A program made the position numbers and the translations under genes. The notes beneath the pieces were generated by a model. It worked only from the letters and a program-made list of their open reading frames with translations, was not told where the DNA came from and made no database searches. Of a stretch of DNA of 64,000 nucleotides, positions 3,345 through 23,394 are shown piece after piece. Every line of letters begins with the position of its first letter. Position 1 is the first letter of the stretch. The DNA comes from an uncultured Thermoplasmata archaeon (GTDB taxonomy: Archaea; Thermoplasmatota; Thermoplasmata; UBA10834), in NCBI GenBank assembly GCA_963719945.1, contig CAVRDX010000003.1, positions 128,001 to 192,000 on the forward strand, in the 5' to 3' direction.

Positions 3345-5768
3345 ATGGGTGGAACGCTAACAGTTTCTGAGAGGATCATATTCCATCTGAACCAATATCT
3401 CAAACATGAGGACAAATACGAGGTTCCATTCGATGTGACTCAGGATGGGATATCGCAGGCATGTTCCATCTCTCGGGCGCATGCGGCGATCGAGCTTAAG
3501 AAGCTCAAGTCTTCGGGATTGATCGACGAGCGTCTCTCGCATGTTAGGCGAGGCAAAACGAGACGGAAAGCGTATTTCCTCACCCCTGAGGGCAAGTCAA
3601 ATGGCGCGACGATCGTCCAGTACGTGAAAGATAACGGAATCGACCCGATGGTCGACCCGTCCAAGGTAGTGCCGATGACAAATGGGGCGAAGACCAGGGC
3701 TGCTAGGAAATCATCTCCGCTGCCTTCGATCAAGTCATTCTATGGGCGGGAGAAAGAGATTGCATCCATGCAAGCTGCGGTATCTGATTCTACCAGCAAG
3801 ATCGTTTGCGTGAAAGGTATCGCCGGTATCGGAAAGACGACACTTGTCGCGAAGGTCGCATCGGATCTCGCAGGACAGAGAGTATTCTGGCACTCTGTGA
3901 AACCATGGGATGTAACGAAGACACTGATCGATTCGTTGGCGAGATTCTTTTCAGACAATGGGTGTCGGAAATTATCCGCCTATCTCACTTCGGGGAAGGC
4001 TGAACTCGGCGAACTCAGCGTTCTTCTCAACGAGGAACTTGCGGAGAACGGATTCACATTCATATTCGATGATGCTGACGCCTCCGATGACCTCGTTGAT
4101 TTCTTTATGATGTTCAGACACAGCAGCGGGTCTGCGAAGATAATCATGACCGCTGAGGGTGTCACACGATTCTATGATAAGTCCGATGTCGTGGCCAGGA
4201 ACGAGGTATGTGAAATCGATCTCGACGGGCTCGAACTGAATGCATCACTGAGGCTACTCGAAGACCGCGGTATCAAAGGCGATGTGGCGAAACAGCTTGT
4301 CTCATTGACCAAAGGTCATCCTCTCTCTCTTGAGATGATAACCGTCTCGGGTCTCAGCGAGGCCAAATCGCAGGTGTCAAAGTTCCTTGAGGAGAAGTTC
4401 TACGCGGATCTCTCCGACCAGGAGAAATCCCTACTGCAATTCGCTTCGGTATTCAACAGGCCTTTCCCTGCCGAAGCGATACCGAAGGACCTCAGACAGG
4501 TCCGGAAGGGTTCCATGCTCCGCGAGGTGGCTCCCGGTCGGTTCGAGATACATTCCTCATTGAAGAGCTTCGTTTACGACTCGATGCCATCTGATATCCG
4601 TACGTCATGGCACAGTGCTGCAGCCGATTATTACATCAAGGTCGGAGATGGCCCTGAACGGCTTCATCATCTGATCCGTGCGAACAGGCATCTGGAATCG
4701 GAGATCATGATGTCGCGGCTCGGTGAGTCTCTCATGGATGATGGCAACGTCCAGCAGTTGTGGCTCGTCATGAAGGATTTCATCCCAAATAAGACAAAGT
4801 ACGTCCAGTCGGTCACGTTGCTCAAGGCAAAGGTCGCGAACAAGGTCGGCGAGTATTCAGCATCGACGCGCCTTCTCGAAGAGCTTTCCGGATGTGACGA
4901 GGATTCCGTGCGAGCAGAGTCACTGATCGAGCTGGGGAAAATCCGGAGCAAGCAATGTGATCTGAAGCAGGCATCGAAGTTGTTCTCCGAAGCGCTCGAC
5001 TGCGCTCAGGACCTGCCTGCCCAAAGGGCAAAGGCTCTTCGTGGTCAGGGCGTGATTGAGAACAAGTTGGGCAACTTTGAACTGGCGCAGGACCTGCTGG
5101 AATCGAGCGCTCGCGATTCGATGTCCGTCATGGATTCAAAAGGCATGCTGCTGGCCCATCTCGAATTAGGGAATGTCTTCATCGGCCGTGGCCTGTACGA
5201 GGAGGCAATCTCGCATTTCTCGAAGTGCGCGGCCGGGTTCGGCCCGGTAGACCTAGCCAATGTGTATGTGAAGATGGGCATCGCATGCGCTCATCTCGGC
5301 AAGCATGCAGAGGCGAGGTTGCATCTCGAGAACGCTGTCAAGTTGGCGACGGAGACCGGGCAGCCCCGCACGAGGGCATATGCGCAGTCCTCGTTATCGG
5401 AGCTCTTGACCAAGAACGGCGACCCTGCATCTGCCAAGGAACATTGTTTCAGCGCACTCGAGGTATTCACTGAATTGAATGATAAGCTGGGAATGTCGTT
5501 GGCATATGCGAATCTGGGCAAGTCGTCTCAGCTGATGGGTGATTTTGTGACCAGCGAAGAGTACTACCTTGAAAGTCTCGCAGCCATCAAGGATGTTGAT
5601 GCACCAAGACTTCTTGGTATGAGGACGATGGAGCTCGGCCTCGTGTTGATGGACAAGGGCGAAGGGGATCGAGCCAGAAGATGTCTCGAAGATGCCAAGG
5701 CGCTGTCTGAGCGATCCGGATCAGCCGACCTGACAGCTATGATTGAAACTGCCTTGGGCAGACTCTGA
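3345..5768 (+). CDS. wHTH-STAND NTPase-TPR regulator
   Basis: N-terminal wHTH (VTQDGISQACSISRAHAAIELKKL), Walker A GIAGIGKTT, Walker B FIFDD, GHPLSL (GxP) motif, C-terminal TPR-like helical repeats. Confidence 0.8.
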   Translation: MGGTLTVSERIIFHLNQYLKHEDKYEVPFDVTQDGISQACSISRAHAAIELKKLKSSGLIDERLSHVRRGKTRRKAYFLTPEGKSNGATIVQYVKDNGIDPMVDPSKVVPMTNGAKTRAARKSSPLPSIKSFYGREKEIASMQAAVSDSTSKIVCVKGIAGIGKTTLVAKVASDLAGQRVFWHSVKPWDVTKTLIDSLARFFSDNGCRKLSAYLTSGKAELGELSVLLNEELAENGFTFIFDDADASDDLVDFFMMFRHSSGSAKIIMTAEGVTRFYDKSDVVARNEVCEIDLDGLELNASLRLLEDRGIKGDVAKQLVSLTKGHPLSLEMITVSGLSEAKSQVSKFLEEKFYADLSDQEKSLLQFASVFNRPFPAEAIPKDLRQVRKGSMLREVAPGRFEIHSSLKSFVYDSMPSDIRTSWHSAAADYYIKVGDGPERLHHLIRANRHLESEIMMSRLGESLMDDGNVQQLWLVMKDFIPNKTKYVQSVTLLKAKVANKVGEYSASTRLLEELSGCDEDSVRAESLIELGKIRSKQCDLKQASKLFSEALDCAQDLPAQRAKALRGQGVIENKLGNFELAQDLLESSARDSMSVMDSKGMLLAHLELGNVFIGRGLYEEAISHFSKCAAGFGPVDLANVYVKMGIACAHLGKHAEARLHLENAVKLATETGQPRTRAYAQSSLSELLTKNGDPASAKEHCFSALEVFTELNDKLGMSLAYANLGKSSQLMGDFVTSEEYYLESLAAIKDVDAPRLLGMRTMELGLVLMDKGEGDRARRCLEDAKALSERSGSADLTAMIETALGRL

Positions 5769-13898: not shown

Positions 13899-15356
13899 TT
13901 GGCAAAGGCAGTCTACGACCCATTGAATTCTGAACAGGAAGATGCAGTGCACCTGGAATCGATCAGGATATTGGAGAATGTGGGGATCAAGGTGACGAGC
14001 CCCAAGGTTCTCAAGATGTTGAAGGATGCTGGGGGGATTGTTGATGAGAAGACCCAGATCGTGAAGATATCAGAGGCGATGATCAAGGAAGCCTTGTCCA
14101 AAGCCCCTAAGGAATTCACGATGTGTGGTAGAGACAAGAAATGGGACCTGAGACTTCCAGCAACGGATAGGATTTATGGGGTCAATGACGGACAGCCGAC
14201 CGATGTCTGGGACATAGATACTCAGAAGAAGCGCAAAGCTACCATGAGGGACCTGATCGACCTCACGCGCGTATGCGATGCCATGCAGGAAGTGGATCTC
14301 TATTGGCCAGAAGTCGTCGCCACAGACCTGCCGCCAGATGTATCCAATAATCACGAATTCGTCGCATCGATATTCAACACCGGAAAGCACATTCAGCACG
14401 GTGCAGGCTCCATCGAGGATGCCCGGTTCCAGATAGAGGCCGCCGCCGCGATAGTTGGTTCCGAGGAGGCACTAGCCAAGAGGCCGATAATCTCGATAAC
14501 GCACACGCCCATAACTCCGCTCAGATACGAGGAGGGCGATATCGATGCCGTCGTCGAGTTCGCAAAGGCCGGACTTCCAGTCGTCCACCTGTCTATGGCA
14601 ATATCCGGCTCGGTGGCACCGGTGACGCTAGCAGGTACGATCTCCCTCGTCAACGCTGAGAACCTCGCGGGCGCAGTCATATCGGAGCTGGCAAAGCCAG
14701 GTGCGCCAATACTATACAGTTCTGAATCCGGACCGATGGATATGAAGACCGGTGTCTTCCTGTCCGGTTCGACTGAGGGCGCTTTGATCAACGCTGCCGG
14801 CTGCCAGATGGCTCGCAGATACGGCCTGCCTTCACAAGTGGGCGGGACCGCGGCGTCAGGATGTATGCCTGGTTATGAGATAGGATACCAGAAGGCGATC
14901 AGCAGTCTCCTTCCAGCGATGGCCGGCGCCGATCAGATCGTCGGGATCGGCGGTTTCGAACGTTCTGGAGTCGAGTCGGTCGAGCAAATCGTGATGGATT
15001 GCGAGTTGTGGAGAAACGTCCTGCGCGCTTGGAGAGGGGTCGAGGTATCCGACAGCACATTGGGTTTCGATGTCATATCGAGAGTCGGTCCTGGCGGTTA
15101 TTTCATGAAGGACCCACACACCCTTCGCAATTTCCGGAAGGAGATGCTCCTGCCGAAGATCGCAATGCTCCCGCCGATTATGGGTTCGGACACGGAACCT
15201 ATCCGAGTCGCTGCGAGGAACGAAGCACGGAGGATCCTAAAAGAGCACGAACCAATGGGAATCGATCGTTCTGTCAGAGGGCAGATAATCGCGCTACTGT
15301 CGAAATACGATGAGATGGCCGGCGTTTGTCCTGTTCAGGTCACATATCTTGACTGA
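13899..15356 (+). CDS. Trimethylamine methyltransferase (MttB) superfamily, non-pyrrolysine
   Basis: IKEALSKAPKEFTMCGR, ITPLRY, GSVAPVTLAGT, NAENLAG, DMKTG, VGPGGYF..PHT..FRKE; start moved to TTG 13899; no in-frame TAG. Confidence 0.88.
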   Translation: MAKAVYDPLNSEQEDAVHLESIRILENVGIKVTSPKVLKMLKDAGGIVDEKTQIVKISEAMIKEALSKAPKEFTMCGRDKKWDLRLPATDRIYGVNDGQPTDVWDIDTQKKRKATMRDLIDLTRVCDAMQEVDLYWPEVVATDLPPDVSNNHEFVASIFNTGKHIQHGAGSIEDARFQIEAAAAIVGSEEALAKRPIISITHTPITPLRYEEGDIDAVVEFAKAGLPVVHLSMAISGSVAPVTLAGTISLVNAENLAGAVISELAKPGAPILYSSESGPMDMKTGVFLSGSTEGALINAAGCQMARRYGLPSQVGGTAASGCMPGYEIGYQKAISSLLPAMAGADQIVGIGGFERSGVESVEQIVMDCELWRNVLRAWRGVEVSDSTLGFDVISRVGPGGYFMKDPHTLRNFRKEMLLPKIAMLPPIMGSDTEPIRVAARNEARRILKEHEPMGIDRSVRGQIIALLSKYDEMAGVCPVQVTYLD

Positions 15357-16521: not shown

Positions 16522-16564
16522 CCTGAGCAACCTTTAACTCCGTTTCCGTCCTTCCCTCTCACCG

Positions 16565-17347
16565 ATGGAGGAACAACTCAGAGTTGGCGCGATTGATGAT
16601 GAGACCTTTGACAGGTCCCGTCGGATTGGATGGCTTGACCTAGATGCGGTGTTCAGGGCAAAGGTCCTCATGGTCGGCGCAGGCGCTTTGGGGAACGAGG
16701 TCGGGAAGAACCTGATGCTCTCAGGCTTTCGTCATGTGACCGTTGTGGACATGGACCATGTCATGGGCTCGAACTTGAACCGATGCCTCTTCTTCTCACG
16801 AGAGGACGCTTCCAGACGAAATCCCAAGGCGGAAGTCGTCGCCCGGGGAATGAACGCCCTCTCCGAACATGCTGAAGTAGAATCGATTTCATCCATGATC
16901 GAGGAATTGGATGAAGGGATATACAAGGTCCACGACATCATCCTCGGCTGTCTTGACAATATCCCTGCACGACTTCATGTGAATTCACGATCCTATCGGT
17001 TCGGGAAGACCCTGATCGATGGCGGGATGGAAGGGTTTGTTGGCCGAGCCTTCGTCGCCAATCCTCCGAACGGCGCATGTATCCAATGCGGCATGAACCG
17101 TTCACATGCGAAGGTTGCGAACCTTCGATTCAGCTGTACTGGGACGGATATGGTATTTCATGAACCTAGGATTCCCGCCGAGATCACGACTACCAGCGTC
17201 ATATCGGCTATCATGGTAAGGGAATGTCTAAAATTCGTATCTGGTAGGATGGATATGATGCTGTCAAATGCTTTCTTCTACGACGGTCAGAGGAATGTCT
17301 CAGAAGAGCTGGAATTCGATATCGATCCACTTTGTCCAAATCACTGA
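16565..17347 (+). CDS. Ubiquitin-like activating enzyme E1 (ThiF family, UBA3/UBA2-like)
   Basis: GAGALGNEVGKNL, VDMD..MGSNLNR, KAEV, LDNIPAR, LIDGGMEGFVG, CIQC, candidate catalytic Cys in FSCTG, IPAEITT, C-terminal CPNH. Confidence 0.9.
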   Translation: MEEQLRVGAIDDETFDRSRRIGWLDLDAVFRAKVLMVGAGALGNEVGKNLMLSGFRHVTVVDMDHVMGSNLNRCLFFSREDASRRNPKAEVVARGMNALSEHAEVESISSMIEELDEGIYKVHDIILGCLDNIPARLHVNSRSYRFGKTLIDGGMEGFVGRAFVANPPNGACIQCGMNRSHAKVANLRFSCTGTDMVFHEPRIPAEITTTSVISAIMVRECLKFVSGRMDMMLSNAFFYDGQRNVSEELEFDIDPLCPNH

Positions 17348-17372
17348 GGCCCGAGTCGTTGCTACAGGTATC

Positions 17373-17388
17373 CGAAAACGATATAATG
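17373..17388 (+). promoter_or_regulatory. Possible internal BRE/TATA promoter for Ubl-E2-JAB
   Basis: GAAAACG followed by ATATAAT, about 25 nt upstream of the Ubl start. Confidence 0.35.
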
Positions 17389-17410
17389 TCAACAGCCGTC
17401 AGTCGTCTAG

Positions 17411-17659
17411 GTGATCTTTCTGACTTTCAGACTCAAAGTAAAGAACGCAGAGACAGGTGCTGCCGTCGAGATGGAGCTAGAGGGTGACAATACCATCGAT
17501 GAGATCATCGAGAGCGCCGCCACTTTCTGGAATAAGGACATGGGCGCATATGTCCTGAGAAAGGGCAAGAAGGTGCTTCGCGGTGGTTCCTCTATCAAGG
17601 ATGCCGGGATAATTGGCGAAGATGTGCTGGAACTCATTCCAGATCCTGAAGGCGGATAG
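17411..17659 (+). CDS. Ubiquitin-like (beta-grasp) modifier with C-terminal Gly-Gly
   Basis: 82 aa; Ub-like pattern (LKVKN, TIDEII, YVL, IKDAGI..EDVLELI); ends PEGG-stop; lies between E1 and E2. Confidence 0.85.
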   Translation: MIFLTFRLKVKNAETGAAVEMELEGDNTIDEIIESAATFWNKDMGAYVLRKGKKVLRGGSSIKDAGIIGEDVLELIPDPEGG

Positions 17660-17664
17660 TAGGG

Positions 17665-18186
17665 ATGTCTCTTCCGGCTGATGTGCTCAGAAAGCGTCTA
17701 AAGAACGAGATAGAGATTTGTCAACGTGAGCTCAGGCATCATATCTCTGTCTCTGATCCGGCCATCATCTCCTTCCCTATTTTGATCAACGTGCACATGC
17801 TGCGCGTACCAGGCCCTACATGGGAGGAGAACAAGATTGTACACAGGTTCGTTCATAAGATTGCGATTCTGATAAGTGAGGAGTATCCGATCGAGAAACC
17901 GATAGTCAAGTGGCAGACACCAATCTTCCATCCGAACATAATGCCCCCTGAGGACGGCGGTTATGTGTGTACGAAATTGCTGGAGAACTGGGATTTCAGC
18001 TCGACCTTGGCTACATTCATACGGGGTATCGAATCGCTTTTGGTGAATCCGAATCCAAAAAACCCGTTCGGATGTGACACATGTACTAGAGCCGCTGCAT
18101 ACTTCAATCGTGTGAGATATCAGCCGCCTACTGTGATGGATCAGACGGACCGTAGAATCAGGATTGTGAGGGGTTCCGATGCCTAG
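17665..18186 (+). CDS. Ubiquitin-conjugating enzyme E2 (UBC fold)
   Basis: KRLKNE, YPIEKPIVKWQTPIFHPNI, GYVC (catalytic Cys), ENW, IESLLVNPNPKNP. Confidence 0.92.
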   Translation: MSLPADVLRKRLKNEIEICQRELRHHISVSDPAIISFPILINVHMLRVPGPTWEENKIVHRFVHKIAILISEEYPIEKPIVKWQTPIFHPNIMPPEDGGYVCTKLLENWDFSSTLATFIRGIESLLVNPNPKNPFGCDTCTRAAAYFNRVRYQPPTVMDQTDRRIRIVRGSDA

Positions 18187-18823
18187 GCCAAGGATCGTTA
18201 ATGAGATCCAGCTCAAGATTTCAGAGATAGCGCCGCCATCAGTTGACAGCATCAATCATCATGATTGGCTATCCGAGGAATCCCTCTCGGCATTCCATCG
18301 GGTTCTTGAGTCTGGGTCAACATTTGAAATGTACTTGTCCGAAGCTGCAAACTGCAAGATCGTGTCCCAAGCGGAGGATTCGGCTCCAAAGAGGCTCGAG
18401 GTGATGGGGTTTATGTTGGGCGAGGTGTGTTCTTGGAGAGGCGAGACTTACACGATCGTCTGGGATATCGGCACAACCTCTCTGAATAGCACGACTGCGA
18501 AGGTCAGGTTTGACCATAGGGCACTTCCGCGACTCTTCGGTGAACTCGATCGTTCTGGATTCGATTATGTCATAGTCGGCTGGTACCATTCCCATCCCGG
18601 GCACACTTGTTTCCTGTCAAAGACTGACCTCGACACTCAAAAGGCCATGTTCAATCAACCTTTTCATTCCGCGCTTGTCGTAGACCCGATAAACGCCGAT
18701 GTCAAGGTCTTCAAGCTCTCGGATCAGGGGTATCGCGAGGTTCCGTTTGCCATCACTTGCGCGGCTCGTGAAGGTAGAGCCGTGGAGAATCGTCAACGCA
18801 TTCGCCGACTCAAGACGAGATGA
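18179..18823 (+). CDS. JAB/MPN+ (JAMM) metallo-isopeptidase, Rpn11/CSN5-like
   Basis: EVMGFMLG, VGWYHSHPGHTCFLSKTD (complete E..HxHx7Sx2D), ALVVDPI; overlaps the E2 stop. Confidence 0.92.
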   Translation: MPRPRIVNEIQLKISEIAPPSVDSINHHDWLSEESLSAFHRVLESGSTFEMYLSEAANCKIVSQAEDSAPKRLEVMGFMLGEVCSWRGETYTIVWDIGTTSLNSTTAKVRFDHRALPRLFGELDRSGFDYVIVGWYHSHPGHTCFLSKTDLDTQKAMFNQPFHSALVVDPINADVKVFKLSDQGYREVPFAITCAAREGRAVENRQRIRRLKTR

Positions 18824-18904: not shown

Positions 18905-20062
18905 GTGACGAATGCGTATCGACTTGCCTGCATAATCGCAATGGTTGCTATAGTGTCGTCATCCATCCCTGTGAACGTATCCGGGGCCGCGGACTATGCT
19001 CTCTTTGTATCCGTCGACGAGACCAAGGTGAGCATGATATCTGGCAATTTCTCTGTTGCCGTGACCAGGGACTGGCCCCGAATCATATTCTGGCATACGA
19101 TCGATCCATTCTCGCCGACGTTCGAAGCTAGTTTTCCTCGGATGCATGTATTCAATGACTCTGATGACGACGGGATCTTCTGCAGATCCGAGGCCGTTGG
19201 CACGGTGTTCTTCGACTCCAATCATGCTACCTGGAACCTCTCCTCGATAATCTCTGATTATACTCCCGATATGGGCGAATACGCCATGTTCAGCATGTCT
19301 GCGGAGACATCAGTGTACAATGTATCCGGAGTAGGCCCTGCCATCATTGAGAACTGGGCGAATGTCACTTTCTGGTTCTGCTTGGCTGAGAAATCTGTCA
19401 CCTATGAAGCGCCTTTGGGCAGTTTTGTTGTTTCTGGCAAGACTGAGATGCGAGTCAACATGACCATTAGGATCAATAATTCCACATTCGCAGATTATAT
19501 CGCACTTGAGCGATTCCTGCAAGGTGGAGGAACGACGAATTCGTTCTTGGTGACGGAGGGTGATTTCCGATCCGATCCGGTTCTCACGCTTCTGTCTGGG
19601 TGGGACGATGAGACTCTCCTCGGCGAAGACTACACGAGACCTCTCAGGCAGACAGATGACGCAATCCAGGGCATCATGTACATCAAGGCGGATAAGACCG
19701 CTCAGGCACATTTTCTCTGGGGCACGGCTGCGCTGATGAACAACAAGTCATCGTCATTTGATTATGTGCTTGGTTCATCGTGCTACACAACAGGCGCTGG
19801 TCTGATGTTGCATTCCGCCATTCCTATCTCCAATGATACATGTTCCATTGGAGACCAAACTATCATCGGAATCGATGAATCGGGGTTTGTCGGAGGAGTC
19901 AGCGATTGGATAATGGAGTATCTTCCAGTGTTCGTCGGACTCATCATAGCCACAACGATATCTGTGCTGGCATTCTATCTCATCCGAAAGAAGCAGAAAA
20001 TCAAATCAAAAACGGAATCTGCGGATGATCTCGAGACGGATGAGATTCTGGGCGGTGTCTAG
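18905..20062 (+). CDS. Secreted/membrane-anchored protein of unknown function
   Basis: N-terminal signal peptide, many NxS/T sequons, C-terminal TM helix followed by RKKQK. Confidence 0.7.
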   Translation: MTNAYRLACIIAMVAIVSSSIPVNVSGAADYALFVSVDETKVSMISGNFSVAVTRDWPRIIFWHTIDPFSPTFEASFPRMHVFNDSDDDGIFCRSEAVGTVFFDSNHATWNLSSIISDYTPDMGEYAMFSMSAETSVYNVSGVGPAIIENWANVTFWFCLAEKSVTYEAPLGSFVVSGKTEMRVNMTIRINNSTFADYIALERFLQGGGTTNSFLVTEGDFRSDPVLTLLSGWDDETLLGEDYTRPLRQTDDAIQGIMYIKADKTAQAHFLWGTAALMNNKSSSFDYVLGSSCYTTGAGLMLHSAIPISNDTCSIGDQTIIGIDESGFVGGVSDWIMEYLPVFVGLIIATTISVLAFYLIRKKQKIKSKTESADDLETDEILGGV

Positions 20063-23300: not shown

Positions 23301-23373
23301 GGGCCCGTGGGGTAGCTTGGTATCCTTCCAGCTTGGGGTGCTGGTGACTCGTGTTCAAATCGCGACGGGCCCA
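23301..23373 (+). tRNA. tRNA-Pro(GGG), CCA not encoded, no intron
   Basis: Acceptor GGGCCCG/CGGGCCC, anticodon arm CCAGC-TTGGGGT-GCTGG, T arm TCGTG-TTCAAAT-CGCGA. Confidence 0.95.
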
Positions 23374-23394
23374 CTCAAGTACTACACATTATTC

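Follow-up and report, generated by a model that had tools for sequence, protein, structure and literature searches.

The 64,000-nucleotide stretch of an uncultured Thermoplasmata archaeon analyzed here (GenBank contig CAVRDX010000003.1, positions 128,001 to 192,000; hereafter the window, within which all cassette coordinates are given) carries a four-gene cassette encoding a compact E1-like activating enzyme, a ubiquitin-like modifier (Ubl), a UBC-fold E2 conjugating enzyme, and a JAMM isopeptidase (JAB). Judged by its sequence and gene order, this cassette is a real, conserved, and resident conjugation system of the ubiquitin type. We consider it probable that the system is vertically inherited, eukaryote-like, and operates through a mechanism that includes a RING step. 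The four genes themselves are not unknown; what is new here is the evidence for a RING-like partner, a C4HC3 zinc finger found in proteins encoded elsewhere in the genome. The family of one of these, P0001, a finger/zinc-ribbon protein, is publicly annotated as zinc-ribbon proteins only. The proposal that this family represents the dedicated RING-type ubiquitin ligase (E3) of the cassette, with E3 expansions, is tentative, and we give it slightly less than an even chance.

All four genes are encoded on the forward strand. The E1-like enzyme (16565..17347; 260 amino acids [aa]) is followed, after a spacer of 63 nucleotides (nt), by the Ubl (17411..17659; 82 aa from a GTG start), which is recognized as an open reading frame (ORF) and by its modeled fold. 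The E2 (17665..18186; 173 aa) begins after a gap of 5 nt, and the gene for the JAB protein, an Rpn11/CSN5-like JAMM (MPN+) isopeptidase (18179..18823; 214 aa), overlaps the E2 stop by 8 nt. A first-pass annotation of this DNA had described four co-oriented genes with this gap and this overlap, and the ORFs are exactly as it claimed. Profile searches of the kind it proposed gave Pfam matches above the curated cut-offs to ThiF for the E1 (1.5e-43), to UQ_con for the E2 (4.4e-14), and to JAB for the isopeptidase (3.6e-11), and the catalytic residues that it had read as intact are present and invariant across 37 to 66 relatives.

The E1 consists of an adenylation domain alone: the ThiF match spans residues 21–251 of 260, both the C-terminal ubiquitin-fold domain (UFD) and the inserted catalytic-cysteine domain are absent, and the protein ends at the zinc motif C257-x2-H260. 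Among 63 relatives, the GxGxxG loop and residues G40, G43, K48, N70, R73, K88, D131, and R136 are invariant, as are the zinc tetrad C172-x2-C175...C257-x2-H260 and C191 within an SCTG motif. The best solved relative is the NEDD8 E1 UBA3 (2e-22), followed by UBA1, SAE2, UBA6, and UBA7; MoeB/ThiF (2e-12) and Citrobacter BubCD (5e-6) match more weakly, and the score lies far under the NCBIfam equivalog cut-offs for ThiF, MoeB, and UbaA (for UbaA, 56.7 bits vs. a cut-off of 450).

The Ubl ends in ...PDPEGG directly before the stop codon and has no pro-peptide. In an alignment of 33 orthologues, the terminal LELIPDPEGG is nearly invariant and the mean column identity is 71%; most orthologues begin about three residues after the GTG start at 17411. 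No Pfam match was obtained for the Ubl, including none to ThiS/MoaD (PF02597). Its AlphaFold2 model (mean predicted local distance difference test score [pLDDT] 86) is a beta-grasp with the element order b-b-a-b-b-3(10)-b, and a Foldseek search places SUMO1, ubiquitin, NEDD8, and the ubiquitin of Caldiarchaeum (CsUb) on top, with template-modeling (TM) scores of 0.8–0.85 and an identity to ubiquitin of 22–27%.

The E2 scores 52.7 bits against UQ_con (cut-off 27) and is the sole PF00179 match in the genome. Across 37 relatives, the HPN motif (H89-P90-N91), the catalytic C102, W109, P129, and N130 are invariant, and its best 60 sequence matches in the PDB are all eukaryotic E2s and related UBC-fold enzymes, the top one at 3.3e-13. 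The JAB protein is likewise the only PF01398 match in the genome, and none of its 66 relatives deviates at E74, H137, H139, S147, or D150. Among solved structures, it matches the Caldiarchaeum Rpn11 homologue best (6fjv; 4.7e-17), then Rpn11 and CSN5, and AMSH-type enzymes more weakly. In sequence comparisons, the enzymes of the cassette are thus closer to those of eukaryotes and Caldiarchaeum than to MoeB/ThiF or to bacterial Bub.

A scan for relatives of the E2, with one genome per species, gave 164 stretches, and the locus counts that follow refer to the best 80 of these. Of the 80 loci, 76 have the Ubl beside the E2, 76 have the JAB gene there, and 65 the E1; the order never changes, and E2 identities go down to about 49%. 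The loci come from Thermoplasmata, Methanomassiliicoccales, and unclassified "Methanobacteriota" or "Thermoplasmatota" metagenome-assembled genomes (MAGs); record titles among the closer relatives name Methanomassiliicoccus sp., Ca. Methanoplasma, Ca. Methanogranum, and Methanomethylophilaceae. By their titles, the 175 records are MAGs save "Methanomassiliicoccales archaeon RumEn M1," which carries no MAG label and which we take to be enrichment-derived; no title among them names a cultured isolate. The first-pass annotation had suggested a resident pathway of this lineage, and both the co-conservation of the four genes and their constant order in 80 Thermoplasmata and Methanomassiliicoccales loci support this suggestion.

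The distribution of the E2 was assessed across 401 genomes sampled evenly from the phylum, 261 of them of high quality, together with 14 control genomes. A PF00179 E2 is encoded in 96 of the 401 genomes (72 of the 261 high-quality ones) and in none of the 14 controls. Several families are all-or-none: the E2 is present throughout f8 (6/6) and f12 (14/14) and absent throughout f5 (0/26), f15 (0/36), and f26 (0/24). Family f2 (29/48) and, at the level of the genus, g2 (6/11) are mixed.

The host genome (1.78 Mb, 87% complete) also encodes a second E1 of the MoeB/UbaA type, which scores 219–239 bits on the ThiF, MoeB, and UbaA models and shares 29% identity over 157 aa with the E1 of the cassette, and three ThiS/MoaD genes that lie outside the cassette, elsewhere in the genome. 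Because this separate set is present, the cassette is additional to the machinery of the sulfur-carrier or small archaeal modifier protein (SAMP) type.

A candidate for the ligase step emerged when the genome was searched permissively with Pfam zf-RING_2, which gave sub-threshold matches, and then scanned in six frames with a regular expression. The pattern C-x2-C-x12-C-x-C-x4-H-x2-C-x6-C-x2-C occurs in exactly three copies in the genome: in P0001 (339 aa), which combines the finger (about residues 50–104) with a basic N-terminus and numerous zinc ribbons; in P0002 (613 aa), a membrane protein that also has a DUF835 domain; and in P0003, where it is C-terminal and accompanied by a coiled coil and a CARDB domain. 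The three genes are on contig C1 and are unlinked to the cassette. The eight zinc ligands (C4HC3) and the proline of the CP-x-C loop are invariant in 28 fingers taken from many genomes. Against PDB sequences, the finger profile gives end-to-end matches to RING-H2 E3s, with Arkadia first (1.3e-6), then RNF24, RNF165, RLIM, RNF4, ZNRF3, and others. The AlphaFold2 model of the finger has a pLDDT of 85.9, and its best 50 Foldseek matches are all RING or U-box domains, at E-values that are weak (7e-3 upward), as expected for a finger of 55 residues. The protein cluster of P0001, named for zinc ribbons, has 133 members in the Thermoplasmatota; clusters called "Ring finger" in Asgard archaea and Prok-RING_1 in bacteria score below 0.9 against P0001 and are leads only. 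The Pfam Prok-RING families were reportedly defined by Burroughs et al. in 2011.

The finger profile matches 112 of the 401 phylum genomes. Both E2 and finger are found in 86 genomes, the E2 only in 10, the finger only in 26, and neither in 279, counts that overstate independence because the genomes are kin, so that the informative contrasts are those within groups. In the class to which the window belongs, the finger is present in 41 of 41 E2-positive genomes, and within both family f2 (29 of 48 genomes) and genus g2 (6 of 11) the sets of genomes with the E2 and with the finger are identical. The small finger proteins of families f2, f8, and f10 (172–283 aa) have the architecture of P0001 and match it along their own length.

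In genus g2, neither Ubl nor E2 nor finger is encoded in three genomes that are 99% complete. A further g2 genome, G061, retains a decayed cassette (locus L134, G061:C1:1446500-1454500, at about 3585–4971), in which the SCTG cysteine is missing from the E1-like gene, the Ubl-like gene ends in ...PSVSR instead of GG, and HxH is missing from the MPN domain; neither an E2 nor a finger gene was found in this genome. The decayed copy adjoins homologues of the SIS-domain and TIM-barrel genes that are the downstream neighbors of the cassette in the window.

In five genomes from three other families, a finger protein is encoded inside the cassette itself. Two of them (G004 and G016) have the order E1, a protein of 3,155–3,183 aa with the finger at its end, Ubl, E2, and JAB, and in G004 an extra membrane-anchored finger protein of 118 aa is encoded just 5' of the E1. 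Two more (G036 and G050) have the order E1, a 3,134-aa finger protein, E2, and JAB, and in the fifth (G070) a finger protein of 228 aa precedes E1, Ubl, E2, and JAB. The giant finger proteins of 3,134–3,183 aa thus lie between the E1 and the Ubl or E2 (L104:1164-10628, L105:1119-10667, L106:1250-10651, and L107:5697-15098). In the two that were scanned against Pfam (L104 and L106), no recognizable domain was found save the C-terminal C4HC3 finger, and no separate Ubl gene was found in L106 or L107 among ORFs of 70 aa or more.

We also predicted the complex of the two proteins from an E2 alignment, a finger alignment, and two zinc ions in three runs. The score was 0.64, compared with 0.02 for the best control; 58 of 80 solved complexes attain this mark, as do 2 of 110 mismatched pairs. 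The runs share at least 93% of contacts, with a partner pLDDT of at least 77. The predicted interface joins E2 residues 1–18 and 110–114 to finger positions 11–15, 36, 39–40, 42, and 44–45, so that E2 helix 1 and the loop after W109 meet the short helix of the finger and two of its loops, the first zinc loop and that of CP-x-C. These are the elements of the textbook RING–E2 surface. On the E2 side of the interface, conservation is 90% or more at R11, N14, E15, F111, and S113.

From these motifs and from what is known of the protein families, we infer the following mechanism. The compact E1, which is presumably homodimeric as MoeB and Uba5 are, would adenylate Gly82 of the Ubl using ATP and then hold the Ubl as a thioester on Cys191 in the crossover loop, from which it would pass to Cys102 of the E2. 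The charged E2 would discharge onto lysines of target proteins, probably stimulated by the RING-like C4HC3 finger proteins P0001, P0002, and P0003, and the Rpn11-like JAMM protease would take the tag off its targets. Because the Gly-Gly end of the Ubl is free from synthesis onward, no maturation by the protease would be required. The cassette would work alongside, and not in place of, the separate MoeB/UbaA and ThiS/MoaD (SAMP-type) set.

Several observations weigh against this interpretation, above all against its RING step. The finger remains below the Pfam cut-offs for RING domains, at 19.5–23.9 bits for zf-RING_2 (cut-off 27.3) and 16.7–21 bits for Prok-RING_1 (cut-off 29.1); the spacing between its fourth and fifth ligands is PHD-like, and no linchpin arginine is conserved past the last cysteine. 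The finger is not exclusive to conjugation, because 26 genomes carry it without any E2, mainly in proteins of about 1,450–1,620 aa, in the E2-less families f4 (4/4: G055, G131, G156, and G365), f6 (2/2: G079 and G227), and f26 (15/24). Conversely, 10 of the 96 E2-positive genomes are without the finger, and the kinship of the genomes reduces the weight of the overall overlap. Because RING–E2 complexes have already been solved, the outcome of the complex prediction denotes likeness and is not proof of binding; it may reflect the memory of the model for such complexes. The hand-over of the Ubl from E1 to E2 is unproven because the E1 is without the UFD that recruits an E2. Finally, the literature search yielded no biochemistry for any member of the system.

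The strongest rival is a minimal cascade that needs no E3, in which E1 and E2 suffice, the E2 selects its targets directly, as Ubc9 or systems of the Bil/Bub type can, and the C4HC3 fingers are unrelated zinc-binding modules in the same lineages. It would account for the sub-threshold RING scores, for the fingers in genomes without an E2, and for the fact that no finger or other RING gene was found in or beside the cassette, either in the window or in the 80 related loci. It leaves the identical presence and absence of E2 and finger within f2 and g2 to coincidence, and it does not explain why other families encode a finger protein between the E1 and the Ubl or E2, or why the finger is RING-like in sequence and fold and is predicted to dock on the E2 through the canonical interface. 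We therefore regard a cascade without E3 as unlikely. The co-occurrence, the finger genes inside cassettes, the RING fold match, and the predicted docking lead us to conclude that the cassette is probably not E3-less. The first-pass annotation had seen a complete cycle of activation, conjugation, and removal; the parts for these three activities are indeed present, whereas the claim that four genes make the cycle complete probably does not hold, given a RING-like candidate E3 encoded elsewhere.

Two further readings concern the nature of the cassette itself, and we reject both. The cassette matches BilABCD in its four functional parts, and its patchy presence in g2 (6/11) suggests that it is dispensable, as might be expected of an antiviral or stress-defense module of the Bil, Bub, or Cap2–Cap3 kind, the last from cyclic oligonucleotide-based antiphage signaling systems (CBASS), that is chromosomally located by chance. 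PADLOC gave no match for the E2 or the Ubl and weak, partial, domain-level matches to CBASS-type models for the other two proteins, the E1 to E1–E2 fusion models (best 4e-13) and the isopeptidase to JAB models. The E1, however, leans toward eukaryotic E1s (2e-22, compared with 5e-6 for BubCD), neither defense nor mobility genes were found near the cassette in the window, and its position among housekeeping genes is conserved, with an M29 peptidase on the 5' side in 33 of the 80 loci, a 385-aa membrane protein on the 3' side in 34, and the same SIS-domain and TIM-barrel homologues beside even the decayed copy of G061. Such a defense role is very improbable. The alternative is a sulfur-carrier role of the ThiS/MoaD type, in which the E1 and Ubl, as a pair, would make a thiocarboxylate for cofactors or for the thiolation of tRNA and the E2 and JAB would be accessory; it draws on the MoeB-like size of the E1 and its domain-level matches to ThiF/MoeB models. 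Yet the E1 fails the NCBIfam ThiF, MoeB, and UbaA cut-offs by wide margins, the Ubl resembles ubiquitin and SUMO and has no ThiS match, the genome has its own MoeB/UbaA-type E1 and three ThiS/MoaD genes elsewhere, the catalytic cysteine of the E2 and the JAMM site are invariant, and there is no rhodanese domain; we can give this alternative hardly any credence. A resident conjugation system of the ubiquitin type thus remains the preferred reading.

The surroundings of the cassette in the window are of a housekeeping kind. Its neighbors encode a thioesterase, a methyltransferase of the MttB family, an M29 peptidase, SIS-domain and TIM-barrel proteins, and the ribosomal proteins L18e, L13, and S9, and a tRNA-Pro lies at 23301–23374; the Rfam and tRNA scans of the window gave nothing relevant besides this tRNA. 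GC content is flat over the entire window. The housekeeping setting free of mobility and defense genes that had been noted earlier is thus borne out. The M29 peptidase is found 5' of the cassette in the closer relatives only. The same is true of the predicted membrane protein of 385 aa directly 3' of the JAB gene (18905–20062), which has no Pfam match and stays downstream of JAB in closer relatives. The MttB-family (trimethylamine methyltransferase-like) gene at 13920–15353 (Pfam 5.7e-76) has no in-frame stop and is therefore apparently a member without pyrrolysine. Two candidate archaeal TATA-like boxes are suggested by the sequence on the forward strand: AACCTTTAACTCC at 16530..16542, about 25–30 nt 5' of the E1 start, and an internal one, CGATATAATGTC, at 17379..17390 in the E1–Ubl spacer, about 25 nt 5' of the Ubl start.

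Some further features of the finger family should be mentioned. In the E2-less families, the finger is found in a single conserved large protein, where matches are listed. Some large genomes of the phylum (3.1–5.5 Mb; G077, G083, G146, G162, and G174) have 13 to 17 or more finger matches, and G129 has 8; E2 matches number two each in G077, G083, G146, and G174, up to seven in G162, and five in G129, and some of the matches in these genomes sit in proteins of 550–1,057 aa. The E2 and finger families of these large genomes look like a lineage-specific expansion. The P0001 finger/zinc-ribbon gene adjoins ftsZ (G000, contig C1:26424-27506 [L084:772-1788, minus strand] and L084:20-712); the two genes are convergent in G000 and co-directional, the finger gene preceding ftsZ, in five relatives from f8, f9, and f10 (L112–L116). 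Given this recurrent adjacency, the conjugation system, if P0001 is its E3, may perhaps also be tied to cell division.

If P0001 is indeed the E3, a euryarchaeal lineage would have a full ubiquitin-type system of E1, E2, E3, and deubiquitinating enzyme outside the Asgard and TACK archaea, and this lineage includes Methanomassiliicoccales methanogens of gut, termite, and rumen samples. With the finger as a ligase, the charging of an E2 by a UFD-less E1 would become testable with small soluble proteins, as would the minimal requirements of an active RING and the purpose of ubiquitin-type tagging in a cell free of endomembranes. As a conserved and simpler version, the Thermoplasmata cassette offers a second, independent view of how such a cascade was assembled, with a UFD-less E1, a tag made with its GG end ready, and a candidate RING that is detached and noncanonical. 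To our knowledge, Caldiarchaeum is the one archaeon from which eukaryote-like ubiquitylation with an E2 has been reconstituted; most discussion of such systems concerns Asgard and TACK lineages.

The novelty of the four genes, which the first-pass annotation had thought possible, is limited by earlier work, although the literature search turned up no description of the Thermoplasmata operon, of its biochemistry, or of a RING partner. A 2023 preprint (10.1101/2023.07.25.550441) places a "Ca. Thermoplasmatota E2" clade deep in a tree of archaeal E2s and ubiquitin E2 variants (UEVs); this clade is most likely the same PF00179-positive family as our E2, and the passages searched treat it as a tree clade only, with no description found there of an operon, E1, Ubl, JAMM, or RING. 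Operons in which JAMM-3 proteins, a group nearer Rpn11/CSN5, occur with homologues of Ub, E1, and E2 are described in Fuchs 2018 (PMC6043591), and the supplement of Hennell James 2017 (PMC5654768) describes a Cluster III with E1s that lack the C-terminal Ubl domain and with E2s that group with bacterial E2s. Both resemble the cassette in combining a Ub-like protein, a UFD-less E1, an E2, and a JAMM protein nearer to Rpn11/CSN5 than to desampylases. The taxa are not named in the texts searched, so that the inclusion of Thermoplasmata could not be verified; the E2s of Cluster III are reported to group with bacterial ones, whereas eukaryotic E2s and related UBC-fold enzymes make up the best 60 solved matches of our E2. 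The sole such mention in Grau-Bove 2015 is one marine group II euryarchaeote with a UCH and RINGs.

With the sampylation system of Haloferax volcanii (SAMP, UbaA, and HvJAMM1), the cassette shares an archaeal Ubl ending in GG, an E1 of MoeB size, and removal by a JAMM protease, but sampylation has no E2 and uses modifiers of the ThiS/MoaD type, and the E1 of the cassette is far from the UbaA cut-off. BilABCD, Bub, and CBASS Cap2/Cap3 have the same four parts, E1, E2, Ubl, and JAMM; they are, however, defense or stress operons, often with fused E1 and E2, and differ from a cassette whose E2 has no PADLOC match, whose E1 is distant from BubCD, and whose locus is syntenic among housekeeping genes. 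The closest likeness is to the operons of Caldiarchaeum and the Asgard archaea. Caldiarchaeum subterraneum (Aigarchaeota) has an operon of Ub, E1, E2, a small RING finger, and Rpn11 (Nunoura 2011, PMC3082918); its system has been reconstituted (Hennell James 2017, PMC5654768), and structures of its Rpn11 and Ub are available (Fuchs 2018, PMC6043591). Both kinds of operon combine a modifier of ubiquitin fold with an E1 whose adenylation domain is eukaryote-like, a UBC E2 carrying HPN and the cysteine, and an Rpn11-like JAMM protein, and the likeness to Caldiarchaeum extends to its Rpn11 as the best solved relative of our JAB and to the superposition of the Ubl model on CsUb. The Thermoplasmata E1, in contrast, is a protein of 260 aa lacking the UFD and the inserted catalytic-cysteine domain, and its Ubl is made with a free GG, whereas CsUb needs processing by Rpn11. 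The candidate RING is here unlinked, of the C4HC3 type, below Pfam RING recognition, and fused to zinc ribbons, and the host belongs to the Thermoplasmatota, neither TACK nor Asgard.

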